Below, piece by piece: positions 3,863 through 64,000 of a stretch of 64,000 nucleotides of DNA. Made by a program: the position numbers and the translations under genes. How positions within the stretch are numbered: the first letter of the stretch is position 1; every line of letters begins with the position of its first letter. Source of the DNA: Candidatus Magasanikiibacteriota bacterium (GTDB lineage Bacteria; Patescibacteriota; Patescibacteriia; Magasanikbacterales; UBA922); assembly GCA_021648085.1 (NCBI GenBank), contig JAKITS010000001.1, positions 45,434 through 109,433 of the forward strand, given 5' to 3'. The notes beneath the pieces were generated by a model, which saw nothing but the letters and a program-made list of their open reading frames with translations, was not told the origin of the DNA and made no database searches.

Positions 3863-5752
3863 ATGGCATTTAAACCAATTTCTACAAAACAAAAAAATAT
3901 TCCAGGACTCAAGAAAGGGGATAAGAAAACAGAAGAATTAAAAGTCCAAAAAGAGTTAGTTAGTCTGGAAGAAGAAAGAGTTTTTCGTTCTGGGACAGTT
4001 GCAATCAAAGACTTAATTGCACCTTCTGCATTCAAAGTTGATTCTAGTTTTTTGCAGTTGGGCGATGTATTTTTGAGAACTATTTTTGTAATTTCTTATC
4101 CAAGGTATATTGCAGTTGGTTGGAGTTCTCCTATTTTGAATATGAGCATTACCATGGATATCTCAATGTTTTTTTATCCTATAAAAGCGGAGATAATTTT
4201 GAAACAACTAAAGAAAAAAGTGGGAGCATTGCAGGCACAACTTAGCTCTGACAGAGAAAAAGGAGCACCAAGAGATCCACTGCGAGAAACAGCTTTGCGA
4301 GATATAGAAAAACTTAGAGATGATCTTACGCAAGGTGTTGAACATTTTTTCCAATTTGCATTTTATACTACAATTTATGCAAAAAGTAAAAAAGAATTAG
4401 ATAAATTGAGTGAAGATGTAGAAAGTGTTTTTGGTTCTACTTTGATATATAGTAAGCGTGTTTTGTACCAAGCAGAACAGGGATTCAATTCTACTGCACC
4501 ACTTGGAATAGATGAGCTGATGGTTGCATTCAATATGAATTCGTCTCCTATTGCATCATCATTTCCATTTATTTCTGCAGAGCTTACAAGTGATAATGGT
4601 GTACTTTATGGTATAAATAGACATAACAATAGTTTAATTCTTTTTGATAGATTTAGTCTACAAAATGCAAATATGGTTGTATTTGCAACATCTGGAGCTG
4701 GAAAATCATATGCAATTAAACTAGAGATTTTGCGTAGTATGATGTTTGGTACAGATGTGATTGTAATTGATCCGGAAATGGAATATAAACATTTGAATGA
4801 TGCGGTTGGTGGGACTTATATAAATATTTCTCTTTCCTCTGAAAGTAAAGTAAATCCATTTGATTTACCGAGACCTGTTGGGCAAAAGATTTCCACAGAA
4901 GATGTTGTTAGGAATGCAGTTATTACAATGAAAGGTCAGCTTAGAATAATGTTTGGTAAAATATCTCCGCAAGAAGATTCTGTTTTAGATAGAGCATTGA
5001 TAGAAACTTATGCTAAAAAAGACATAACAGCAGATTCAGACTTGGCGACAGTAGAGCCACCAATTATGCAGGATTTATTGGAAATTTTGGAAGGTATGGA
5101 AGGTGGAGAAAATTTGGTTTTGAAACTTCGTAAATACACAGAAGGAACTTTTTCAGGACTTTTCAATTCTCCAACTAATGTAAATGTAAATAACCAGCTT
5201 GTAATTTTTAGTGTGCGTGATTTAGAAGATGAATTAAGGCCGGTTGCTTTATATTCTCTTATAAATTATATTTGGAATGTTGTACGATCAGAAAGAAAGA
5301 AGAGATTGTTGATTATCGACGAGGCTTGGTGGCTTATGATGCACGAAGATAGTGCTAAATTTATCTTTGCACTTGTAAAAAGATGTAGAAAATATTATCT
5401 TGGAATTACTACAATTACACAAGATGTAAACGATTTTTTACGATCACCGTATGGACAATCTATTGTAAACAACTCTTCACTTCAGCTTTTACTCAAACAG
5501 TCTCCATCTGCAGTAAACTTAATACAAAAGACTTTTATGCTTACAGAAGGCGAAAAGTTTTTACTTTTGGAAAGTGCAGTTGGCGAGGGGATATTTTTTG
5601 CAGGTCTAAAGCATGCTGCCATTAAAATCGTAGCATCTTATACAGAAGATCAACTAATTACATCTGATCCAAAACAGCTTTTGGAAATTGAAAAATCCAA
5701 AAAAGAATATGAAGAAAAACTTCTGCAAGATAAAGGTGAAGAAACTAAATAA
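3863..5752 (+). CDS. virB4: VirB4/TrbE/CagE-family type IV secretion ATPase (C-terminal ATPase portion)
   Basis: Walker A 'VVFATSGAGKSYAIK', VirB4-type Walker B 'LLIIDEAWWLM', 629 aa. Confidence 0.75.
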   Translation: MAFKPISTKQKNIPGLKKGDKKTEELKVQKELVSLEEERVFRSGTVAIKDLIAPSAFKVDSSFLQLGDVFLRTIFVISYPRYIAVGWSSPILNMSITMDISMFFYPIKAEIILKQLKKKVGALQAQLSSDREKGAPRDPLRETALRDIEKLRDDLTQGVEHFFQFAFYTTIYAKSKKELDKLSEDVESVFGSTLIYSKRVLYQAEQGFNSTAPLGIDELMVAFNMNSSPIASSFPFISAELTSDNGVLYGINRHNNSLILFDRFSLQNANMVVFATSGAGKSYAIKLEILRSMMFGTDVIVIDPEMEYKHLNDAVGGTYINISLSSESKVNPFDLPRPVGQKISTEDVVRNAVITMKGQLRIMFGKISPQEDSVLDRALIETYAKKDITADSDLATVEPPIMQDLLEILEGMEGGENLVLKLRKYTEGTFSGLFNSPTNVNVNNQLVIFSVRDLEDELRPVALYSLINYIWNVVRSERKKRLLIIDEAWWLMMHEDSAKFIFALVKRCRKYYLGITTITQDVNDFLRSPYGQSIVNNSSLQLLLKQSPSAVNLIQKTFMLTEGEKFLLLESAVGEGIFFAGLKHAAIKIVASYTEDQLITSDPKQLLEIEKSKKEYEEKLLQDKGEETK

Positions 5753-6324: not shown

Positions 6325-6457
6325 AAAATCAAATTAAGCAAAACATAAAAAAGAGGGGAATCCTTCTTTTTTATATTTTGGTTTTTTCTAGCTTTTGACT
6401 TAATTTTAAAAATATATTATTTTGAGCAAAAAAAGTAGTCTCTTATTTAACTTGGAC

Positions 6458-6781
6458 CGCGTCATATTGAGCGAAACGAAGTGGAGTCGAAATATCTCAA
6501 AAAAGTATAACCAGAATTATGAATATTTTATGTTCTTATGATTCTGTTTCGAGATCCATTCGACTTCATTCCGCTTTGCTACATTTCGCTCAGGATGACG
6601 TGAATATTTTACGTCATCCTGAGCGGAACGAAGTGGAGTCGAACGGATCCCTGTGCAGTATAACCAGAATATAAATAATTAAAATAAAACGTTAGTCCGT
6701 CTTTCTTTTTGTTCTTTGTTAATTGATAATTGCTAGTTTTGTGAAACTGTTTCGAGATCCTTCGGCTTCGCTCAAAATAAT
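6458..6781. repeat. cluster of 4 copies (mixed orientation) of dispersed intergenic repeat family, core CACGTCAT(C/A)(C/T)TGAGCG-[variable CGAAG-rich]-GGATCTCG(AAAC)
   Basis: copies at ~6458-6498 (+), 6544-6602 (-), 6612-6661 (+), 6749-6780 (-, partial); same family recurs at 15.7, 60.6, 62.7-63.1 and 63.9 kb. Confidence 0.75.
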
Positions 6782-6830
6782 ATCTTAAAAATCGAGTTTT
6801 TTACTTTATGAACTTTCGACTTAAATAAAT

Positions 6831-7532
6831 ATGCAATTTTTAGAGAAAATAAATAATTTTCTAAAGGAAACACTGTTTCCAATTTTTTGTTTGGGTTGTG
6901 ATACAGAAGGTAAGTGGATTTGCGACAATTGTAGATTTAGTTTTGATACAAATGGAATTTTTTTGTGTGCGGTTTGCAAAACACATACAGTTTTTGGAAA
7001 AACTTGCGATAAATGTAAGAAAAAGACAAATTTAGAATCTGTTTGTGCGGTTTTCAATTTCAAGAAAAATTTAAATGCTAGCAATCTGGTAAGTATATGG
7101 AAATATCAATACGCAGAAGAATTGGTAGAAAACATTGATAATTTTGCGCAAGAATTTGCTCGAAGTAATTTTTCTTTATTTTTAGAAATAGATGCGATTG
7201 TTCCAGTTCCACTTCATCCGCGTAGGTTTGCTGAGCGCGGTTTCAATCAGGCTGAAATAATAGCACAAAGTTTGTCAAAAGTTTTGGAAAAACCAGTTGT
7301 GAATTTGTTGAAAAGAAAAAGATATACAAAACAACAAGCAAAATTGAAAAAACACAAAAGAATAAAAAATGTTGTTGGAGCTTTTACCACGCAAAAAGAT
7401 TTTCAAAAATATAATAGAGTTTTGTTGGTGGATGATGTTTACACCACAGGTAGCACAATAAATGAATGCGCAAATGTTTTGCACAGTGGAGGTGTGCAAA
7501 CTGTGGATAGTTTTGTTCTTGTTCGTGGATAA
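6831..7532 (+). CDS. comFC: ComF-family competence protein (phosphoribosyltransferase domain with N-terminal Cys4 zinc finger)
   Basis: N-terminal CxxC..CxxC..CxxC..CxxC; PRTase motif 'VLLVDDVYTTGSTINE'. Confidence 0.8.
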   Translation: MQFLEKINNFLKETLFPIFCLGCDTEGKWICDNCRFSFDTNGIFLCAVCKTHTVFGKTCDKCKKKTNLESVCAVFNFKKNLNASNLVSIWKYQYAEELVENIDNFAQEFARSNFSLFLEIDAIVPVPLHPRRFAERGFNQAEIIAQSLSKVLEKPVVNLLKRKRYTKQQAKLKKHKRIKNVVGAFTTQKDFQKYNRVLLVDDVYTTGSTINECANVLHSGGVQTVDSFVLVRG

Positions 7533-9454: not shown

Positions 9455-9475
9455 TTTTTACAAAAAGGACGGGAT

Positions 9476-9560
9476 TCCTCTCACTCCGATTCGAGCATAA
9501 ATACTGCGCGTACTCGTATCCTTCTCATCCAGACACGAGTAAAGATTTTTACTCGTTCCC
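9476..9560 (-). repeat. tRNA-downstream conserved element (GGATGAGAAGGATACGAGTACGCGCAGTAT..GGAGTGAGAGGAATCC on minus strand), copy downstream of tRNA-Ser(GCT)
   Basis: shares ~55 nt with two tandem copies at 9673-9898. Confidence 0.7.
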
Positions 9561-9568
9561 TTTCTTTG

Positions 9569-9658
9569 CGGAGAGGGCGGGATTCGAACCCGCGGTCCGG
9601 GAAATACCCGGACAACACATTAGCAGTGTGCCGCTTTCGACCACTCAGCCACCTCTCC
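9569..9658 (-). tRNA. tRNA-Ser (anticodon GCT), long variable arm
   Basis: cloverleaf readable: acceptor GGAGAGG/CCTCTCC, D-arm GCTGAGTGGTCGAAAGC, anticodon loop CTGCTAA, T-arm GGGTTCGAATCCC. Confidence 0.85.
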
Positions 9659-9672
9659 AGTATTTTTTGTTT

Positions 9673-9898
9673 TTTAAATTCTTGTGGAGAGAGTGGGATT
9701 CCTCTCGCTCCGACTCGAGCCTGGATACTGCGCGTACTCGTATCCTTCTCATCCCACACACGACACAAGACTTTGTGTCGCTTCTATCCTGCGGAGAGAG
9801 TGGGATTCCTCTCGCTCCGACTCGAGCCTGGATACTGCGCGTACTCGTATCCTTCTCATCCCACACACGACACAAGACTTTGTGTCGCTTCTATCCTG
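9673..9898 (-). repeat. two tandem 108-bp units, each = 18-nt copy of tRNA-Ser(TGA) 3' end (AATCCCACTCTCTCCGCA) + terminator-like hairpin + conserved ~55-nt element
   Basis: units 9673-9790 and 9790-9898 nearly identical; directly abut the 3' end of tRNA-Ser(TGA). Confidence 0.8.
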
Positions 9899-9985
9899 CG
9901 GAGAGAGTGGGATTCGAACCCACGGAGGGCGCAAACCCTCAACGGTTTTCAAGACCGCCGCCTTCGACCACTCAGCCATCTCTCC
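9899..9985 (-). tRNA. tRNA-Ser (anticodon TGA)
   Basis: acceptor GGAGAGA/TCTCTCC, anticodon loop CTTGAAA, long variable arm, T-arm GGGTTCGAATCCC. Confidence 0.85.
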
Positions 9986-10117
9986 AGTTTTATTTTTTAA
10001 AAATATTCAAACAATACGATAATAGTTTATCTTATTTTAAACAATAAGTCAATAGTTTTTATATTTTGTAAAAAACATAAAATATGATATAGTGATTGTA
10101 TATTCTTATATAAATCT

Positions 10118-10531
10118 GTGTTAGAAAACAAAACAGACATTTTTGGGATTATGGTAGGTAGTAAGCCTACCAATCAAGATTGGCAAGAGAGCCGCCAAGA
10201 GGGTGAGCTTGCTGTTGATGTTATTGAAACAGAAAATAAAATTGTAATAATTTCTACAATTGCTGGTACAAAAACAGATAGTGTGGAAATATATGTCCAC
10301 AATGACCTACTAACTGTAAAAGGAAGTAGAGAGATGCCAGTAGAAGAGCTTAGTGATGGAAAAATGCATTTAAATGAGTGTTTTTGGGGAGCTTTTTCCA
10401 GAACAATTGTTTTGCCAGTAGATGTTCAAGGTCATAGAGCACAAGCAGAATATAAAAATGGAATTTTAAAAATAACTATACCAAAACAAATAACAGACAC
10501 AAAAATACCTGTTTTTGTAGTAGAAGAATAA
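10118..10531 (+). CDS. Hsp20/alpha-crystallin family small heat-shock protein
   Basis: alpha-crystallin domain signature '..AVDVIETENKIVI...GAFSRTIVLP..V....A.YKNGILKITIPK'. Confidence 0.8.
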   Translation: MLENKTDIFGIMVGSKPTNQDWQESRQEGELAVDVIETENKIVIISTIAGTKTDSVEIYVHNDLLTVKGSREMPVEELSDGKMHLNECFWGAFSRTIVLPVDVQGHRAQAEYKNGILKITIPKQITDTKIPVFVVEE

Positions 10532-15537: not shown

Positions 15538-15674
15538 ATATAAATTAATAATTTTACTATTGCTTAGAGCATAGCAAAGATTTTGTATTTTGTGAAGACA
15601 AGCAAGATAGTAGACTAACAATTAAGTAGATTAAGCAGGTTAAGTACAAAAGGGGTAAAAAAGAAAAACCAATG

Positions 15675-15803
15675 CACGTCATATTGAGCGGAGTGAAACG
15701 AAGTCGAAATATCTCGGGAGAGTATCATTAGAATTGTGAATATTTAATGTTCTGGTTATTTTGTCTCGAGATCCTTCGGCTTTGCTCAGGAAGGTGTGTG
15801 TGG
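15675..15803. repeat. inverted pair of the dispersed repeat family (forward copy 15675-15715, reverse copy 15763-15803)
   Basis: cacgtcatattgagcggagtgaaacgaagtcgaaatatctc ... gtctcgagatccttcggctttgctcagg; can form a long hairpin. Confidence 0.75.
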
Positions 15804-15912
15804 TTTTTTTTCATTTCGAATCCAAGCAAAGTGATTAATCAAAAAAAGCAAAGCTTTTTGATATATCAAATCGAGCGAAGATGATCCATCAAGTGTAAGC
15901 GATACATCGTTT

Positions 15913-25787: not shown

Positions 25788-27791
25788 ATGCTTGTCTGGA
25801 TGAGAAACAAAAAATTAGTCAAAAAAGCTACTGCAGTCTTTTATATTATGATTGCAGTGGTTTTTTTGTTTTCAATTTTTTCTTTTAGTGGTACCACAGA
25901 AGTTTACGCGCAAGGTGATACTTTTGGATTGGAGAGTGTTGACAGTGTCACAGAGCTTGCAACACAAGATATTCGCATAACAATTGCTAAAATAATACGT
26001 GTATTTTTAGGACTTTTGGGTATTATTGCTTTGAGTATTATTATTTACGGGGGTTTTACTATTATGACCTCTGCCGGCAACGAGGAAAAAGTTGCAACTG
26101 GAAAGAAAATACTTGTAAACGCTGTTATTGGGTTGGTTATTATCTTATCTTCGTTTGCTATTACTCAGTTTGTATTATCTTCACTCCAAAAAGCTACAGG
26201 AGGATTGGCAGGGCTTGGTGGAACAGCAAGAGCGCCAGGTATTCAAGTGTTTGCAGGTAGTGGATCTTTTGGAAAAATTATATCAGATCATTTTCCAGAT
26301 AGAGATCAAAGAGATGTAAGTAGAAATACAAAAATTTCTGTCACTTTCAATGAATCTATAGACCCTTCAAGCATTGCGATAGACTCAAATGGAAATGGGG
26401 TTTTTGGAGATTGTGTGACACCAGATTTAGCAGTTTTTGACTGGAATACTCAGTGCGATGTTTTAAATAAAGATGCTGTAAAGATTTATTCTAACGACGA
26501 CGCGGATTCTCTCATAGATTCTGCGGTAATAGTCACAGAAACAGATGGAAATATTCTTACTTTTACAATAAAACCTCTTGAATTATTAGGAAATCCAAAT
26601 GAAAATGTATGGTATACAGTAGATCTTACAGAAAAAATACTTAAAATAGATACAGGAACAAGTGTGTTTGATAATGACAGAGATGGGCATTATTTTTGGG
26701 AGTTTGAGGTGGGGACACTTTTAGATTTTGATCCGCCAAAAGTAACATCTGTTTTTCCTACTATGAATTTGGATGTTTCTAGAAATACAATTTTACAAAT
26801 AAACTTCAACGAGCCAATGGATCCCACATCTTTACAAGGTATTTCAGGTTCTGGTTTTACAAATATTATTTTTGGAGATACTGCTGTTTCTGGAGAATGG
26901 AGAATTACAAATGGTTACAAAACAGTAGAATTTGTGTCAACCGAAGCTTGTGGACAAAATAGCTGTGGAGATGTTATGTACTGTCTTCCTGTAGAATGTC
27001 CTGACACAGATTTAAATTGTACAGTTCCTTATGAAGTTTTGGTTCGAACTGCGGAGTTAATTTCAGAGAAAAATTCCGAGGCTATTCCTTTTACGGGTGT
27101 TATGGATATATCTGGAAATGCATTAGATGGTAATGCTGATGGTGTTTCAGACGGAAAACCAGTAATAGAAAATCCTATAATTTTGGATATTTCAGAAAAA
27201 GTACCCGATAATTATTTTTGGGAATTTGGTGTAATAAATGAAATAGACAGAACATCTCCATATATAGAAAATATTTTTCCAGGAATTGACCAGGAAAATG
27301 TAAGAGGGTCAGAGCCAATTGAAGTTGGTTTCAGTATGATTATGTGGTCATCATCTTTAAAACAGGCTGAAATACAGGAGTATCCAGCAAACGAGGGTGG
27401 AATGGCGGATATTTGGTTTAATATAGGGTCTAAGGTTGTGGCAGATTCAAATGGAATTCAAAAAACAAATATGATTATAAAACATAGAGAGTTTGGACCA
27501 AACGGTTTACCGCTTCATTATTTCTCGTCTGTTTCCAGTGATATTAAAAGTATAAACCAAAATTGTGTTTATCCTGGAAAAGGACCGAGTGGAGATAAAA
27601 ACACCTCACCAACTTGTGTTTACAAAGAAGATAAAGATGGTAATGTGGTAGAAGATTCAAATTGTACACCTGTAAATTTACAAGCTGATACAGACACCGG
27701 ATGTGTGCAAACTGCAGATCCAGAAGGGCTTACACAGCCAAACTTAGATGATTGTATTTCATTTTTAGAAAGTGTTAGTCAAATAGATTAA
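25788..27791 (+). CDS. surface protein with VirB2/TrbC-pilin-like N-terminal membrane domain and Ig-like/Cys-containing extracellular region (667 aa)
   Basis: signal peptide, 'DTFGLE..VTELATQDIRITIAKIIR', two hydrophobic helices separated by 'TSAGNEEK'; first ~125 aa ~60% identical to start of next gene. Confidence 0.5.
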   Translation: MLVWMRNKKLVKKATAVFYIMIAVVFLFSIFSFSGTTEVYAQGDTFGLESVDSVTELATQDIRITIAKIIRVFLGLLGIIALSIIIYGGFTIMTSAGNEEKVATGKKILVNAVIGLVIILSSFAITQFVLSSLQKATGGLAGLGGTARAPGIQVFAGSGSFGKIISDHFPDRDQRDVSRNTKISVTFNESIDPSSIAIDSNGNGVFGDCVTPDLAVFDWNTQCDVLNKDAVKIYSNDDADSLIDSAVIVTETDGNILTFTIKPLELLGNPNENVWYTVDLTEKILKIDTGTSVFDNDRDGHYFWEFEVGTLLDFDPPKVTSVFPTMNLDVSRNTILQINFNEPMDPTSLQGISGSGFTNIIFGDTAVSGEWRITNGYKTVEFVSTEACGQNSCGDVMYCLPVECPDTDLNCTVPYEVLVRTAELISEKNSEAIPFTGVMDISGNALDGNADGVSDGKPVIENPIILDISEKVPDNYFWEFGVINEIDRTSPYIENIFPGIDQENVRGSEPIEVGFSMIMWSSSLKQAEIQEYPANEGGMADIWFNIGSKVVADSNGIQKTNMIIKHREFGPNGLPLHYFSSVSSDIKSINQNCVYPGKGPSGDKNTSPTCVYKEDKDGNVVEDSNCTPVNLQADTDTGCVQTADPEGLTQPNLDDCISFLESVSQID

Positions 27792-51953: not shown

Positions 51954-52559
51954 ATGAATAGAAAAACTATTGTTTTGGGAGGTGTTGTTGCTGGAATTAT
52001 TACAATTTTAGGTGTATCTACTGCGAGTGCTCATTTTGGCGGAAACAACCAATCAAATATTTTTCCAGAAAATCGTGAGGAAATTAAGCAAATAATCGAA
52101 TCAAAAGATTATGACGCTTTTAAAACTCATCTAGAAGAAAATGACAGAACTCAAATGCTAGAAAAAATCACAGAAGAAAAATTCAATAAATTCTTGGAAA
52201 TGAGAGAACTTGCGGAATCTGGTGATAAGGATGGCGCTAGAGAAATTAGAGAAGAGTTGAAATTGAAAAAGTTTAGAAAAAATTTCAATAAAGCAAAAAG
52301 ATTTGGATTGCAACACGAAGAAATGAGACAAATAATCGAATCAAGAGATTATGACGCTTTAAAAACTCATCTAGAAGAAAATGACAGAACTCAAATGCTA
52401 GAAAAAATCACAGAAGAAAAATTTGATAAGTTTCTAGAAATGAAAGAGCTTGCTATTTCTGGAGATAGAGAAGGAGCTAAAAAGATTGCAGATGAATTAG
52501 GTTTGGAAAGAGGAATAAGAAATCTTCACAAATCTATGCATAGACAAGTTCAAAAATAA
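51954..52559 (+). CDS. secreted helical protein with internal ~80-aa tandem duplication
   Basis: signal peptide; DNA 52086-52200 and 52326-52440 almost identical; terminator hairpin at ~52584-52603. Confidence 0.45.
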   Translation: MNRKTIVLGGVVAGIITILGVSTASAHFGGNNQSNIFPENREEIKQIIESKDYDAFKTHLEENDRTQMLEKITEEKFNKFLEMRELAESGDKDGAREIREELKLKKFRKNFNKAKRFGLQHEEMRQIIESRDYDALKTHLEENDRTQMLEKITEEKFDKFLEMKELAISGDREGAKKIADELGLERGIRNLHKSMHRQVQK

Positions 52560-54613: not shown

Positions 54614-54785
54614 ATTTAGACTATTTTTTATTTCGCGGACCGGACGCTCAGGCTCTCCCTGTGATATTTTACTATCGTAAAATATCCCTTCTCGTCCCAA
54701 CACGAGCAAAGACTTTTGCTCGCTTCCGTCCCACAAAACAAAAAATAGTCATTTAGACTATTTTTTATTTCGCGGACCGGACGGG
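54614..54785. repeat. 34-bp direct repeat (tttagactattttttatttcgcggaccggacg) = tRNA-Asp 3' end + flank, bracketing a 105-bp insert related to the tRNA-Ser-linked elements
   Basis: copies at 54614-54646 and 54753-54785; insert contains 'cccttctcgtcccaacacgagcaaagacttttgctcg' similar to 9476-9898 elements. Confidence 0.75.
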
Positions 54786-54846
54786 ACTCGAACCCGCAAC
54801 TTCCGCCGTGACAGGGCGGTGCTCTAACCAATTGAACTACCGATCC
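54773..54846 (-). tRNA. tRNA-Asp (anticodon GTC)
   Basis: reverse complement GGATCGGTAGTTCAATTGGTTAGAGC..CCTGTCACGG..GGGTTCGAGTCCCGTCCGGTCCG. Confidence 0.85.
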
Positions 54847-55182
54847 ATATGGGTACAGTTCATAATTCATTTTAGCCCATAATTTATAAAATTTAGCTGC
54901 AAACTATTTTTTCTTAAACACCTTATAAATATAAAGTTTATTAATAAAAAATTGTTTTCGCTTAAATTTTATTGAATTCTAACTAAAAGCAATTGTGAAC
55001 TGTACCTATTACTATTAACAAGATAATTTTATCAAATTAACAATCTATTGTCAACATATCTCAATAAAAAAGACCTTCGAAGTGTTCGACAACAAACAAG
55101 GGAATGAAGGAGGGGGTATCCCTGCCATTACCGAACACTGCAAAGGTCTTTTTCAAGATGCTAAATAAACTTTTAATAGAGA

Positions 55183-60360: not shown

Positions 60361-60632
60361 AAAATAAATTTAATAAAAATTCTGTGCTAAAATAAGCCAA
60401 AAAATTGGCTTATTTTTTATTTTTAGCTAAAATTAGCTAAATAAACTTGACAAAACTATATTTTTATGGTATTTTTATCTATCGTCTTTAAAACTTATAA
60501 GTTTGTGAAGTAAAAAGTTAAAAGTTCTTTTTTGTCATTTCTGGCTTGACTAGGAATCTAGGAGTCTTTATTAAATGAACAACGAAAGAAAGGTGTGGAT
60601 TTTTGGTCAAACTAAAAATAACAGAAAATATT

Positions 60633-60737
60633 CACGTCATCCTGAGCGAAGCCGAAGGATCTCGAGAAAGTATCACCTTTCCTTCACGTCATCCTGAGCG
60701 GAATGAAGCAGGGCGGAATGAAGTCGAATGGATCTCG
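60633..60737 (+). repeat. two tandem copies of dispersed repeat family (second with expanded variable segment)
   Basis: cacgtcatcctgagcgaagccgaaggatctcg... and cacgtcatcctgagcggaatgaagcagggcggaatgaagtcgaatggatctcg. Confidence 0.8.
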
Positions 60738-60842
60738 TAATAAAATCACAATACTTTAAATATTCATAATTCTGGTAATATAATCTCAAGATATTTCGGT
60801 TATGTTCAATATGACTTGTAATGTTTTATTAAAAATAAGGTG

Positions 60843-60915
60843 AGAATAATTTAGAAAATATAAAAATATTTTTTAAATCATCTTCATCAATTCTGATGAA
60901 GAACTGCTTTGGGTG
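60843..60915 (+). promoter_or_regulatory. conserved upstream module with perfect palindrome tcttcatca-attc-tgatgaaga (60881-60902); paralogous copy at 63090-63160
   Basis: ~70 nt shared with 63090-63160; the palindrome shows a compensatory T:A->C:G change between copies. Confidence 0.55.
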
Positions 60916-60983
60916 AAAGCTCAAAATAGTGTTCGTGTTTTTTACAAACCATAATAATACTCACAATTCCTGAGGAGGAAAAA

Positions 60984-62504
60984 ATGAGCAAGGACAATGA
61001 CAATAATCACGGTTCGGAAATTTTGGAACTTGAAGTTGGTGGGGCTGACCTCCTTTTCAATGAAGGGGAGGCAGAAGATGTTGTCGACGCTTTGGCGGAG
61101 ACGACACTTGTAAATGCAGTTGTGGAAGAAGATGTTTCTTTCACAGTCATTCCCAGCCGAGACCAAGAAGAGGAGATTCAAAACCTCCTCGGAGCTCTAG
61201 GGAAAACAGGTGAGGAGTCTCCAGAAGACTCACTTCAAGCTTTCTCCAAAAGTGGGGATGACGAGGAGTGGAAACCTGCAGTAGTGGTGGAGGCTGAGAA
61301 GTCTACCACCAAAAAACAGGCAGCTGGAGCTCACCAAAAAGTAGAGGTTTTTTCCTCCAAAAAAATCCCGATAGGAACTCCAATTGGACTTCCTCATGGG
61401 AATACTCCCAGAATCCGAAAGGATTTGGGTGGGGTGCAGGAGATCTTGAGGGAGGATGGAACATCCAAACTCAAGGCTGTTCCTATGGATGGGAATACTT
61501 TAACAGCTCCTGTCACGGAGTTGTCGGAGTCTGCACAAGAGGAAGAGTTTTTCAAAGGTGGTGACACTCCACCAAAAGGCTTCAAAGCTGTTCAAAAAGA
61601 TGGTGAAAATCGTCTTGGAGATACATGGGTCGATGAAGATCCATCGTGGTTCGACCGAAACAGCTCAAGCATTTTGGGGTTTGGGATTATCGCTATTGTG
61701 GCGGTAATTCTTTCACTGGTGTTTTTGACTTTGGACATAGCCAAAGCTCCAAACCTCTCGACAGAGGAGCAGACCGCCGAAAAGTCGATAAGTTCCGAAA
61801 AACTCTTTCCTCCCACTTCAGATTCTTCTTCGGAAGAGGAGAAATGGACAGAGGAGGAAAAGAGAAACTTGGAGTCGGAAAAGGCTTTGTCACTTGCTGA
61901 GGAGAATCGCGAAAAGGCAGAAGATCTAGCAGAAGAGTTAGTTTCTTCCGCTACGAGCGCATCTCCAACTACCTCTCCTATTGGATTGGGAAGTACTACA
62001 GGAGCTCTTGATGTGGTGACAACAACAATCGGTGATGATTCTTCGAAAGAGGAAGTCGTTGTTGAAGTCAAAGAAGAAGTTGACTATTCCGAAGCATATG
62101 AAAATATACAAGGAGAAGTTGGTGGACTCGCCGAAGATGTTGAACTGTTCGCAGTCGATGTTCTCGGTGCGATTTCTGAAACTACTTGGCTTACTGTACG
62201 CACTCAACTTGCTAAAGAGGGTTCCGTCGCCGAAACCGAGGAAACAGATTCAGATGATGATTTGGACATTGAGTTCGAAGTCTCTGATGAACCTTCGGGT
62301 GGTGGATATTTTGATATGTCCACAGACGAAATTCTCGCACTAGACTACACAAATCCTCGCGGTGAGGATGATTGTGTGGCTATTATGAGTAGAGCTGGAT
62401 CGGACGAAGTTGGTGAGTTCGAAGGTATGCTCTGTTGCAGAAATCTCCAGATTCTTTCTGGAAAAGATGTGACAGATTGTCAAATTAGAGTGGAAAACTT
62501 TTAG
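60984..62504 (+). CDS. acidic single-pass membrane protein with novel C-terminal Cys domain (..DYTNP.GEDDC...GMLCCRNLQI...DCQIRV); visibly higher G+C than surroundings
   Basis: 506 aa; central TM 'ILGFGIIAIVAVILSLVFLTL'; C-terminal ~55 aa shared with 63209..63739. Confidence 0.5.
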   Translation: MSKDNDNNHGSEILELEVGGADLLFNEGEAEDVVDALAETTLVNAVVEEDVSFTVIPSRDQEEEIQNLLGALGKTGEESPEDSLQAFSKSGDDEEWKPAVVVEAEKSTTKKQAAGAHQKVEVFSSKKIPIGTPIGLPHGNTPRIRKDLGGVQEILREDGTSKLKAVPMDGNTLTAPVTELSESAQEEEFFKGGDTPPKGFKAVQKDGENRLGDTWVDEDPSWFDRNSSSILGFGIIAIVAVILSLVFLTLDIAKAPNLSTEEQTAEKSISSEKLFPPTSDSSSEEEKWTEEEKRNLESEKALSLAEENREKAEDLAEELVSSATSASPTTSPIGLGSTTGALDVVTTTIGDDSSKEEVVVEVKEEVDYSEAYENIQGEVGGLAEDVELFAVDVLGAISETTWLTVRTQLAKEGSVAETEETDSDDDLDIEFEVSDEPSGGGYFDMSTDEILALDYTNPRGEDDCVAIMSRAGSDEVGEFEGMLCCRNLQILSGKDVTDCQIRVENF

Positions 62505-62518
62505 GAGGTGAGTAAAAT

Positions 62519-62558
62519 CGACCGATTGTGAATATAGAAATATATCCACAATCGGTCG
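62519..62558 (+). terminator. terminator hairpin (12-bp stem cgaccgattgtg / cacaatcggtcg)
   Basis: read in sequence right after stop codon. Confidence 0.6.
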
Positions 62559-62575
62559 TAAACTACATTTTAGAC

Positions 62576-62604
62576 TTGACAAAAGTATAAAAATGTGGTA
62601 TAGT
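62576..62604 (+). promoter_or_regulatory. consensus sigma70 promoter TTGACA-N17-TATAGT reading into the repeat array
   Basis: exact -35 hexamer, 17-bp spacer, near-consensus -10. Confidence 0.6.
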
Positions 62605-62642
62605 TATATATTGATTTTTAAATAGAAAAGTGAAACATTTGC

Positions 62643-63080
62643 GAGATATTTCGACTCCGTTTCACTGCGCTCAATATGACGTAAAATAGTCATGTCATCC
62701 TGAGCGGAACAAAGTAAAGTCGAATGGATCTCGAGACAATATCACTTTTTCACACGTCATCCTGAGCGAAGCCGAAGGATCTCGAAACAGAATCACAGAG
62801 TATAAACATTAAAAATCACACACGTCATCCTGAGCGAAGTCGAAGGATCTCGAAACAGAATCACAGAGTACAAACATTAAAAACCACACACGTCATCCTG
62901 AGCGAAGTCGAAGGATCTCGAAACAGAATCACAGAGTACAAACATTAAAAACCACACACGTCATCCTGAGCGAAGTCGAAGGATCTCGAAACAGAATCAC
63001 AAAGTACAAACATTAAAAACCACACACGTCATCCTGAGCGAAGTCGAAGGATCTCGAAACAGAATCACAGAGTATAAAAG
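62643..63080 (+). repeat. repeat-family array: reverse copy (62643-62681), variant forward copy (62694-62752), then 5 tandem 68-bp units (62753-63080)
   Basis: period 68 bp (not a multiple of 3); units differ by only 1-3 SNPs, i.e. the inter-repeat segments are identical rather than spacer-like. Confidence 0.85.
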
Positions 63081-63127
63081 AAAAAAGTGAGAATTGTTTA
63101 GAAAATATAAAAATATTTTTTAAACAA

Positions 63128-63149
63128 TCTTCACTAATTCTGGTGAAGA
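63128..63149 (+). promoter_or_regulatory. palindrome tcttcacta-attc-tggtgaaga (paralogous operator-like site)
   Basis: see 60881-60902. Confidence 0.5.
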
Positions 63150-63208
63150 AGTTCATTCCATATTATTTCATTCCTTTCCTTTCCTTCTTTTTTTCACGTT
63201 TTTAAAGC

Positions 63209-63739
63209 GTGAAGGAGAAAACAATGTCCGAAGAAAAAAAAGAAAAAAAAGAACAAGAAGAACAAGAAGAACAAGAACAAAAAGAACAAGAAGAACAAGA
63301 AGAACAAGAAGAAGAGAGGGAGGTGGAGACACCTCTCAAGGAGAAAAAGACAATAAATTGGATTTGGGGAGCGCTTGCCATTTGGGCAAGTGTTCTCGTG
63401 ATTTGGGGATTGGCGAGTATTTTCTCCTCGGACGATGAGTTCGTAGAGAAAGAGTCGTCACCGCCGCCACCAGTGGTAGTGGCAACAACTTCAATCCCAA
63501 CTCCAATTTTATTACCTCCAACACCTATTGTGGTGAACGGGGTATGCTCATATCTTCCGGATTATACAAATCCCGGAGATGAGGACTGGTGCGTGAAAGT
63601 CGCACAGGAGGCAAAGAGACTTTGTTCTGGCGAAGATGCAGAATTCTACGGCATGCTTTGCTGTAGGAATTTGCAGATTAAAATCGACGACGATGTCGTC
63701 GATTGTCAGATTCGAGTCTCTAGTGTTTTTTATAGATAA
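63209..63739 (+). CDS. acidic (EEQ-repeat) single-pass membrane protein with the same C-terminal Cys domain (paralog of 60984..62504)
   Basis: 'DYTNPGDEDWC...YGMLCCRNLQIKIDDDVVDCQIRV'; TM 'WIWGALAIWASVLVIWGLASIF'; Pro-rich linker. Confidence 0.5.
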   Translation: MKEKTMSEEKKEKKEQEEQEEQEQKEQEEQEEQEEEREVETPLKEKKTINWIWGALAIWASVLVIWGLASIFSSDDEFVEKESSPPPPVVVATTSIPTPILLPPTPIVVNGVCSYLPDYTNPGDEDWCVKVAQEAKRLCSGEDAEFYGMLCCRNLQIKIDDDVVDCQIRVSSVFYR

Positions 63740-63753
63740 GGAGGAATGAAAAC

Positions 63754-63786
63754 AGCCAGATTTGTGATTTCTCACAAATCTGGCTG
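63754..63786 (+). terminator. terminator hairpin cagccagatttgtga-tttc-tcacaaatctggctg
   Basis: read in sequence after stop. Confidence 0.6.
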
Positions 63787-63803
63787 TAAAATACTTTTTA
63801 CAC

Positions 63804-63832
63804 TTGACAAAAGTTAGAAAGTATGCTATTAT
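63804..63832 (+). promoter_or_regulatory. sigma70 promoter TTGACA-N17-TATTAT reading into next repeat copies
   Basis: same CACTTGACAAAAGT context as 62573-62586. Confidence 0.55.
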
Positions 63833-63892
63833 CTTATATTATTTAAAAAGTGAAAATTATTATTAAAATTTTGAGTTAAAGTGAATTGGTTG

Positions 63893-64000
63893 CGAGATAT
63901 TTCGACTCCGTTTCACTCCGCTCAATATGACGTAAAATAGTTGCATCATCCAAAAAAATAGAAATTATCTTAAAGAAATATTTTGCAACACGTCATCCTG
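63893..64000. repeat. repeat-family copies (reverse copy 63893-63932; forward copy begins 63989, truncated by window end)
   Basis: gagatatttcgactccgtttcactccgctcaatatgacgt ... cacgtcatcctg. Confidence 0.75.

Follow-up and report, generated by a model that had tools for sequence, protein, structure and literature searches.

The 64,000-nucleotide stretch of Candidatus Magasanikiibacteriota bacterium analysed here (assembly GCA_021648085.1, contig JAKITS010000001.1, positions 45,434 to 109,433; 'the window' always means this whole stretch) carries a family of short repeats between its genes. What kind of element are they, and which protein would act on them? An earlier interpretation made without database searches (the sequence-only reading) had described a dispersed, intergenic and evolving family, assigned to the elements that resemble repetitive extragenic palindromes (REPs) or miniature inverted-repeat transposable elements (MITEs), to structured RNAs or to protein-binding sites. 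We propose, with a probability of about 0.75, that the repeats are a distinct and previously uncatalogued sequence class of Ssn-related motifs (SRM), the kind of hairpin exemplified by the NTS/dRS3 repeats of Neisseria. The family is widespread rather than specific to one lineage, and is found here in a member of the Patescibacteria around variable membrane-protein genes.

The window contains about 18 units, each of 27-55 nt, where none would be expected by chance. Sequence reading together with a repeat finder gives the unit consensus (CA)CGTCA-NNNT-GAGCG-[variable]-CGAA-N'N'N'T-CTC(GA). The 16-mer core CACGTCATCCTGAGCG occurs 11 times with up to two mismatches, compared with 0.00 expected from 100 shuffles, and GGATCTCGAAAC occurs 10 times compared with 0.16, figures which establish the family as genuine. 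Its earlier placement among REP/MITE-like elements also holds, in the sense of protein-binding hairpins. A covariance model (R1), trained solely on units from other organisms and then run on the window, recovered 15 units at E<0.3 plus two weaker long variants. One further copy (63989-64000) is truncated by the end of the window and was recognised by reading the sequence itself. The units are confined to five intergenic regions (6325-6830, 15622-15912, 60361-60983, 62505-63223 and 63740-64000). The sequence-only reading had announced six loci but itself listed five, and it is five that are confirmed. Their high density is real, yet the units are clustered (three adjoining regions lie at 60.4-64 kb) and the figure cannot be extrapolated to the whole genome.

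Two stem versions occur in the window: 'CC' (ATCCT...AGGAT) and 'AT' (ATATT...AATAT), which differ by compensatory changes. The variable CGAAG-rich middle segment singled out earlier is also real and is the apical part of the hairpin, of 5-6 nt in short units and 16-29 nt in long ones. Similarly, the 'tail' AGTATAACCAGAATTATGAATATTT reported to follow many copies is the spacer of an inverted doublet (a unit, about 50 nt and an inverted unit). There are three such doublets, each combining an AT and a CC unit (6460-6602, 15675-15803 and 60685-60818), in addition to head-to-head pairs at 6587/6610 and 62643/62691 and a 68-bp tandem repeat at 62751-63078 (4.8 copies, 97% identity), in which the 32-nt 'spacers' are likewise repeated.

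Each unit is an oriented semi-palindrome. It is composed of GTC, a 5-bp stem (A-NNN-T), tandem G·A/A·G pairs, a GC/GC mini-helix whose loop is either GAA or a longer insert at the apex, the returning stem strand and, finally, CTC. The minimal unit carries exactly GCGAAGC at its apex and the short units of the window carry GCGAAG(C/T)C, with one base extra. Hirao et al. are said to have found d(GCGAAGC) to be an extraordinarily stable DNA mini-hairpin; it is a biophysical motif and not, unlike the repeat units, a genetic element.

The structure is best judged from covariation. When 22 distinct units taken from unrelated contigs are aligned, 96.1% of the cells pair and none of 500 shuffles reaches either the observed pairing or the observed covariation score. 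If the partner is slid by one to three columns, pairing falls to only 16-52%. Within the helix (the 5-bp stem and the 2-bp apical helix) three pairs have changed on both sides, and pair 12-28 occurs as UA (8), CG (7), AU (3), GC (3) and UG (1). GTC and the 3' C are invariant in this alignment, but this is weak evidence since its members were selected on GTCA and CTC. The window units, which were found through other patterns and R1, retain CGTCAT in most cases, and nearly all of them keep the C that follows the stem. When viral contigs were scanned with the stem left unconstrained (39 loci), the stems recovered were ATTCT/AGAAT (20), ATCCT/AGGAT (nine), ATGCT/AGCAT (two), ACCCT/AGGGT (one) and one with a G-T wobble. 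The window adds ATATT/AATAT to these. Taking all loci together, there are seven fully complementary stem versions.

The minimum-energy DNA fold of a single unit is the proposed structure, at -1.9 to -2.9 kcal/mol. It had also been suggested that inverted pairs form long hairpins. This holds in part: the doublet at 6456-6604 folds strongly (-56.4 kcal/mol, z = -7.7 as RNA; -29.4 kcal/mol, z = -5.8 as DNA), the example originally chosen only weakly (15670-15806, z = -1.5), and 60680-60818 gives z = +1.75. The head-to-head pair at 62643/62691 folds at -32.4 kcal/mol (z = -3.4). Within doublets each arm retains its own complementary stem version, which points to selection on the arm's own hairpin and not on pairing between the arms.

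We compare these units with a system that Chenal et al. (Nat Commun 2025, PMC11893778) described, chiefly on the basis of Pseudomonadati. Ssn nucleases are small GIY-YIG proteins (cd10448, GIY-YIG_unchar_3), that of Neisseria meningitidis, SsnA, having 94 amino acids, and their genes are flanked by SRMs, hairpins of 20-50 nt whose type is the Neisseria NTS CGTCATTCCCGCGMAVGCGGGAATCYRG, a part of dRS3. SsnA binds the hairpin solely as single-stranded DNA and cuts a few nucleotides upstream. Cleavage is governed by the three nucleotides preceding the palindrome and binding by the C just after it. Neither RNA nor double-stranded DNA nor the reverse strand serves as a substrate. Through this system Neisseria integrates less of the transforming DNA that bears NTS, and NTS copies cluster around membrane-protein genes (PMC11893778).

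The units described here share with SRMs their form, an oriented semi-palindromic hairpin in the 20-50 nt range, the 5' box (C)GTCAT (NTS starts with CGTCAT) and the C directly after the stem. They also share the behaviour of a family with hundreds of copies, intergenic and clustered around membrane-protein genes, and an occurrence in symbiont-type genomes. A further likeness is the repeat-gene-repeat layout around a GIY-YIG gene of about 94 codons, which is seen for 11 of 11 such genes in other genomes. They differ in construction: the SRM stem is of 7-8 bp and G+C-rich, whereas the units have a weak, A/T-rich 5-bp stem, tandem G·A pairs and the GCGAAGC mini-hairpin, with an apex that accepts inserts of up to about 40 nt. 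In addition, two stem versions (ATATT and ATCCT) are joined in fixed doublets. No ssn gene is visible in the 64-kb window.

The small GIY-YIG proteins surfaced on inspection of genes lying directly downstream of units. A hidden Markov model (HMM) of these proteins identified eight GIY-YIG genes in about 2 Mb of unit-anchored loci. R1 units lie no more than about 110 nt from each of the eight, and six of these genes are flanked on either side. Three further loci (L282, L284 and L285) were fetched through the protein, and are hence unbiased with respect to the repeat; with these, units lie within about 110 nt of all 11 genes. In Bifidobacterium oedipodis (L284) the units at 9907-9956, 10272-10321 and 10327-10366 surround the gene at 10001-10279, and the rest of the 20 kb is essentially free of them. 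The GIY-YIG gene of L285 is flanked by units at either end, and 16 of the 17 units of L282 fall within 4.3 kb around the gene. A side observation in L282 (6100-10521, GCA_948799185.1) is that about 4 kb of gene-free DNA containing 16 units separates a diversity-generating retroelement (RVT_1 plus bAvd) from the GIY-YIG gene, an arrangement kept in four assemblies.

A typical layout is that of L110, GTCATCCTGAGCG... - gene - ...CGCTCAGGATGAC; L155, L246 and L244 are likewise typical. Over 40 nt, unit A1 of the window (6460-6498) shares 97.5% identity with the units beside the L244 gene. The flanked proteins have 92-101 amino acids and a single domain, PF01541 (E=3e-12), and the L155 protein has Y7/Y17/E64 where the catalytic residues of SsnA are Y6/Y17/E64. 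By domain match, length, single-domain organisation and the positions of these residues, the partner gene that co-localises with the units is a predicted small GIY-YIG nuclease of the Ssn type. The flanked proteins matched no PDB relative and no NCBIfam model, and a literature search on GIY-YIG plus YhbQ returned nothing relevant.

How far does the family extend? A scan of one genome per species with a 14-mer gave at least 120 loci, about half of them chance matches inside genes and about half continuing as full units. Among the 14-mer matches listed are Acidobacteriota, Omnitrophota, Verrucomicrobiota, Chloroflexota, Patescibacteria, Bdellovibrionales, Planctomycetota, Gemmatimonadota and others; the unit hosts named overall include Actinomycetota and Clostridia-like genomes. 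The AT version is also present in metagenomes, among the matches listed, and unit B1 of the window (15675-15715) is 100% identical over 39 nt to a metagenome unit (L186). The units therefore occur in many phyla, phage contigs and metagenomes, and the family is not a novelty of a single lineage. Neither are they restricted to the window: two loci from other genomes (L257 and L175) carry the same units and doublets, L175 having the same AT-spacer-CC doublet. The words AGCGA(A/T)ACATCA, reiterated beside the hairpin doublet both in the window (15858-15910) and in L175 (6270-6360), may represent a further repeat module.

L257 is the orthologous locus of a relative, with a Wzz-like gene at 82% amino acid identity and a downstream membrane protein at 47%. 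It retains the promoter, the first CC unit (C1, 89% conserved against L257 904-967) and an 80-nt leader block, and between these it has about nine units of several stem types against three in the window. The units thus turn over quickly. A canonical NTS-like repeat, gtcattcccggctcgatcgggaatccag, lies at L257 1306-1335 amid units of the GAGCG class, so that several hairpin classes coexist at one locus.

Some points weigh against assigning the repeats to the Ssn system. The published SRM string, HGTCWYN(0-2)YYVSBRHN(0-5)WNVSBRGN(0-2)RNCYNB, has no match in any unit of the window, in L282 or in the loci that carry the eight unit-anchored GIY-YIG genes. The HMM of the flanked proteins finds no GIY-YIG gene in the six-frame translation of the 64-kb window. 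By nearest-neighbour energies a single unit is a marginal hairpin, no better than shuffles, compared with -8.9 kcal/mol for the Neisseria NTS. Finally, the position of the units inside transcribed leaders and their uneven distribution between the strands of the window fit a role at the RNA level too. Concerning the string, it is a search aid derived from 29 genomes and not a definition. The same string does match the NTS consensus and has 27 matches elsewhere in the fetched loci, about eight of them canonical NTS-like. As regards the energies, those of single units are uninformative (as RNA, z is about 0 and +1.3 against shuffles), and the case for the hairpin thus rests on covariation.

Because the units share the box, the C, the size and the layout with SRMs, yet do not match the SRM string, we file them as a new sequence class of a known system. 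The statement in the sequence-only reading that the family was not one recognised from characterised bacteria is understandable, given the failure of the published string. A literature search with the raw unit sequences found no match, and when the window was scanned with the general pattern GTCW-stem-loop-stem-C, the GAGCG/CGAA class was the only SRM class to emerge.

By analogy with SsnA, a unit would fold when the DNA is single-stranded, either in an incoming transforming strand or in intermediates of replication and repair. A cognate nuclease, with about 94 amino acids, would bind the hairpin and the following C and cut this strand a short distance (a few nucleotides) 5' of the GTC box. 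It would not act on double-stranded DNA, on RNA or on the opposite strand. The copies in the window would be non-autonomous, having spread and decayed in tolerant intergenic DNA in three forms: single units, AT/CC inverted doublets and one 68-bp tandem amplification. Since the units bracket paralogous and fast-evolving membrane-protein genes, the most likely consequence would be like that shown in Neisseria: cleavage of incoming single strands at these loci and, with it, modulation of recombination there. The units lie behind strong promoters and would therefore be transcribed as 5' leaders, which is probably incidental.

Several other explanations have to be weighed against this one. The units might instead work as RNA, forming structured modules within long 5' leaders and so governing the stability, processing or translation of the downstream membrane-protein genes. 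In four of the five repeat regions the order is terminator, promoter, repeats and start codon, with strong promoters; relative to transcription about 11 CC-type units are sense and two antisense, and in phage contigs some units lie 20-30 nt upstream of the ribosome-binding site. However, one tandem amplification and homologous cassettes supply most of the sense bias, and these copies are therefore not independent. Both orientations occur, and inverted unit pairs flank the GIY-YIG genes. The single units, as noted, fold no better than shuffles and match no Rfam family at E up to 10, where the repeat regions give only chance miRNA and snoRNA matches (with Rfam 15 only tRNA and tmRNA attain the gathering score in the window, and no repeat is matched). 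In addition, SsnA does not bind RNA (PMC11893778). As the function of the units, an RNA-level role appears unlikely to us, although an effect of this type on expression may coexist incidentally with cleavage of single strands. A hammerhead or other ribozyme core, suggested by the CUGA...GAA appearance, was also considered and rejected: G8/A9 are absent and there is no Rfam match.

The inverted-doublet architecture with its spacer, together with the conservation of the AT-spacer-CC doublet in another genome, recalls REP doublets forming hairpins (REPINs), an analogy pointed out in the Ssn paper itself (PMC11893778). On this account the doublet would be the mobile unit and would be mobilised by a Y1 (HUH) transposase, either a REP-associated tyrosine transposase (RAYT) or the TnpA of IS200/IS605, the type of partner that had been suggested at the outset. 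The parallel with REP, bacterial interspersed mosaic element (BIME) and REPIN sequences and RAYT (Nunvar 2010; Bertels and Rainey 2011, PMC3116915) includes short extragenic palindromes, occurring singly or as inverted doublets with a spacer, a tie to one small nuclease-type gene that the repeats flank, and a hairpin that would act in single-stranded form. Here, however, the units have neither the GTAG-type 5' tetranucleotide (GTAG box) nor a GC-rich stem, their hairpin sequence is common to many phyla rather than lineage-specific, and their partner has the GIY-YIG and not the HUH/Y1 fold. In a rough test with IS200 TnpA and Escherichia coli RAYT queries, tblastn found no match in the window. 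The same rough queries turned up no more than two RAYT-like genes in about 2.1 Mb (285 loci); their nearest units are 0.6 and 1.9 kb away and neither gene is flanked, compared with 11 of 11 for GIY-YIG. Mobilisation by such a transposase is, in our judgement, quite improbable.

A classical MITE origin, as deletion derivatives of an insertion sequence with a DDE transposase and terminal inverted repeats CACGTCAT...ATGACGTG, would account for doublets of 125-145 nt with terminal inverted repeats and an A+T-rich interior. It would not account for single units and head-to-head pairs being as frequent as doublets, nor for the covariation within the stem of each arm, which shows selection on its own hairpin and not on arm-to-arm identity. 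No target-site duplication is visible at the three doublets, and inspection of loci, though not systematic, revealed no transposase gene next to units. A literature search on MITEs in the candidate phyla radiation found nothing relevant, and we regard this origin as very improbable. There is practically no chance that a CRISPR-like array, or a local duplication restricted to the window, explains the feature. The 68-bp periodicity and a 36-nt repeat ending in GAAAC do resemble CRISPR, but the 32-nt 'spacers' of the array are 97% identical and not unique, and the units occupy five separate regions of the window and many other genomes. Integron attC sites were rejected as well, there being no R/L boxes and the units being conserved in sequence.

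The individual units of the window illustrate the variety of forms. In the first region, unit A1 (6460-6498, plus strand) is of the AT type with a long apex, CGTCATATTGAGCG-AAACGAAGTGGAGT-CGAAATATCTC, and scores 25.9 bits with R1 (E=1.9e-5 over the whole window). It forms a 143-nt doublet with A2 (6546-6602, minus strand), a CC unit (ATCC/GGAT) that has a long apex, contains the exact 16-mer at 6587-6602 and GGATCTCGAAAC at 6546-6557 and is only weakly detected by R1 (8.9 bits). The spacer between them (6499-6545) contains the 'tail' and is itself an imperfect palindrome; the fold of 6456-6604 pairs both halves. A3 (6612-6651, plus strand; CC, long; 14.5 bits) stands head-to-head with A2 and is followed by a copy of the tail at 6657-6680, while A4 (6749-6787, minus strand; CC, short; 19.1 bits, E=0.002) has a decayed 5' box. 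The second region contains a weakly folding doublet of B1 (15675-15715, plus strand; AT, long; 27.0 bits, E=9e-6) and B2 (15763-15803, minus strand; CC, short, 5' box decayed; 13.2 bits), with its spacer at 15716-15762.

The remaining three regions adjoin each other. C1 (60633-60666, plus strand; CC, short) scores 40.8 bits (E=6e-10) and is followed by a doublet of C2 (60685-60738, plus strand), a CC unit with the exact 16-mer and the longest apex (29 nt; weak in R1 at 7.6 bits), and the decayed AT unit C3 (60787-60818, minus strand; 12.6 bits), separated by a spacer at 60739-60786. D1 (62643-62682, minus strand; AT, long; 28.4 bits, E=3.5e-6) lies head-to-head with D2 (62691-62737, plus strand; CC, long; 20.6 bits). 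They precede the tandem array (62751-63078, plus strand; 4.8 copies of 68 bp, Tandem Repeats Finder 97% matches), each copy of which comprises a short CC unit and 32 nt of spacer-derived sequence; its plus-strand CC units, at 62753-62788, 62821-62856, 62889-62924, 62957-62992 and 63025-63060, score 39.8-41.1 bits each. In the last region, E1 (63894-63933, minus strand; AT, long; 28.4 bits), where the repeat finder gives 88% identity with 62627-62700, is followed by a truncated CC remnant (63941-63951) and by the plus-strand CC unit E3 (63989-64000), the copy cut by the window end.

The genes around these units are those of a Patescibacteria chromosome. The window has 33% G+C and includes housekeeping genes for SMC, HisRS, FtsA, FtsZ, ClpP, pyruvate kinase and PPDK. 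Comparison of the FtsZ with those of Candidatus Magasanikbacteria gives about 65% identity. The clusters at 60.4-64 kb bracket two paralogous genes, 60984-62504 (plus strand), which encodes a 506-amino-acid membrane protein, and 63224-63739 (plus strand), which encodes one of 171 amino acids. The two have in common only a Cys-rich C-terminal domain. This shared module of about 55 amino acids (DYTNP..C..MLCCRNLQI..DCQIRV) has 58% identity (E=2e-16), and neither protein has a family match. Three promoters of these regions match 10-11 of 12 consensus positions and have an extended -10. A near-consensus sigma-70 promoter (60447-60475, plus strand; TTGACA-17-TATTTT with TG), conserved in L257, lies upstream of cluster C and the first gene. 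A terminator hairpin (62519-62558) precedes the promoter at 62576-62604 (plus strand; TTGACA-17-TATAGT with TG, 11/12), which is upstream of cluster D and the second gene, and another terminator hairpin (63752-63787) precedes that at 63804-63832 (plus strand; TTGACA-17-TATTAT with TG, 11/12), upstream of cluster E. With a strong promoter and a terminator of their own, the two membrane-protein genes look like cassettes of a variable family of surface genes. In front of each paralogue, a conserved 80-nt block (60831-60910 and 63078-63157, 84% identity; also at L257 1546-1710) lies between the repeat cluster and the start codon; it contains a hairpin, TCTTCA...TGAAGA, and an A/T palindrome and may be a leader or operator element of the family.

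Some other features of the window were recorded. Directly downstream of locus A is a gene of the ComF family (competence, DNA utilisation; 6831-7532) with a TIGR00201 match at E=3e-31 that falls below the curated cut-off. The window also encodes a TraG/VirD4-like ATPase (3863-5752) and a protein with a type IV secretion system pilin domain (25788-27791). Two minus-strand tRNA-Ser genes are interleaved with three 107-nt units in the region 9456-9893 (9456-9562, 64% identity; 9680-9786 and 9787-9893, 98%). The first 19 nt or so of these units are identical to the 3' end of tRNA-Ser, after which they diverge; the minus-strand RNA of the region folds at -39.8 kcal/mol (z = -2.9) and the units have a sub-threshold Rfam match (22.9 bits, E=0.04) to RtT, the tRNA-operon-linked repeat of the E. 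coli tyrT operon. A 76-nt inverted repeat (54849-55009, 72% complementary, 9-nt gap) adjoins tRNA-Asp (54772-54846), and a 240-bp tandem duplication (52046-52525, 76% identity) lies within an open reading frame (ORF) at 51954-52559.

If the repeats are indeed Ssn-related hairpins, the logic of a nuclease gene flanked by its own sites would also hold for a hairpin of different construction, in which tandem G·A pairs are combined with a GCGAAGC apex, and this hairpin class reaches Acidobacteriota, Chloroflexota, Actinomycetota, Clostridia-like genomes, Patescibacteria and phage contigs. Some Ssn homologues for which no recognisable repeat had been reported would find their hairpin in this class. 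It would also offer new candidate pairs of enzyme and site for single-strand DNA tools and, for genome annotation, would explain a very common source of spurious short ORFs and assembly breaks.

For the organism itself, the finding places such repeats around the variable surface genes of an ultra-small symbiont, in whose lifestyle DNA uptake is thought to be central. It is tempting, as a speculation that we hold to be unlikely, to go further. In this episymbiotic and probably competent lineage of Patescibacteria, the hairpin clusters that bracket promoter-plus-gene membrane-protein cassettes might delimit units of single-strand exchange, Ssn-type cutting at the brackets deciding whether a surface-protein cassette is gained, lost or shuffled by transformation, and the AT and CC stems might be read by two nucleases or in two strand contexts. 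As a corollary, were this true, Ssn nucleases across bacteria and phages may have one of their major partner hairpins in the GAGCG/CGAA class, which the published motif does not detect.

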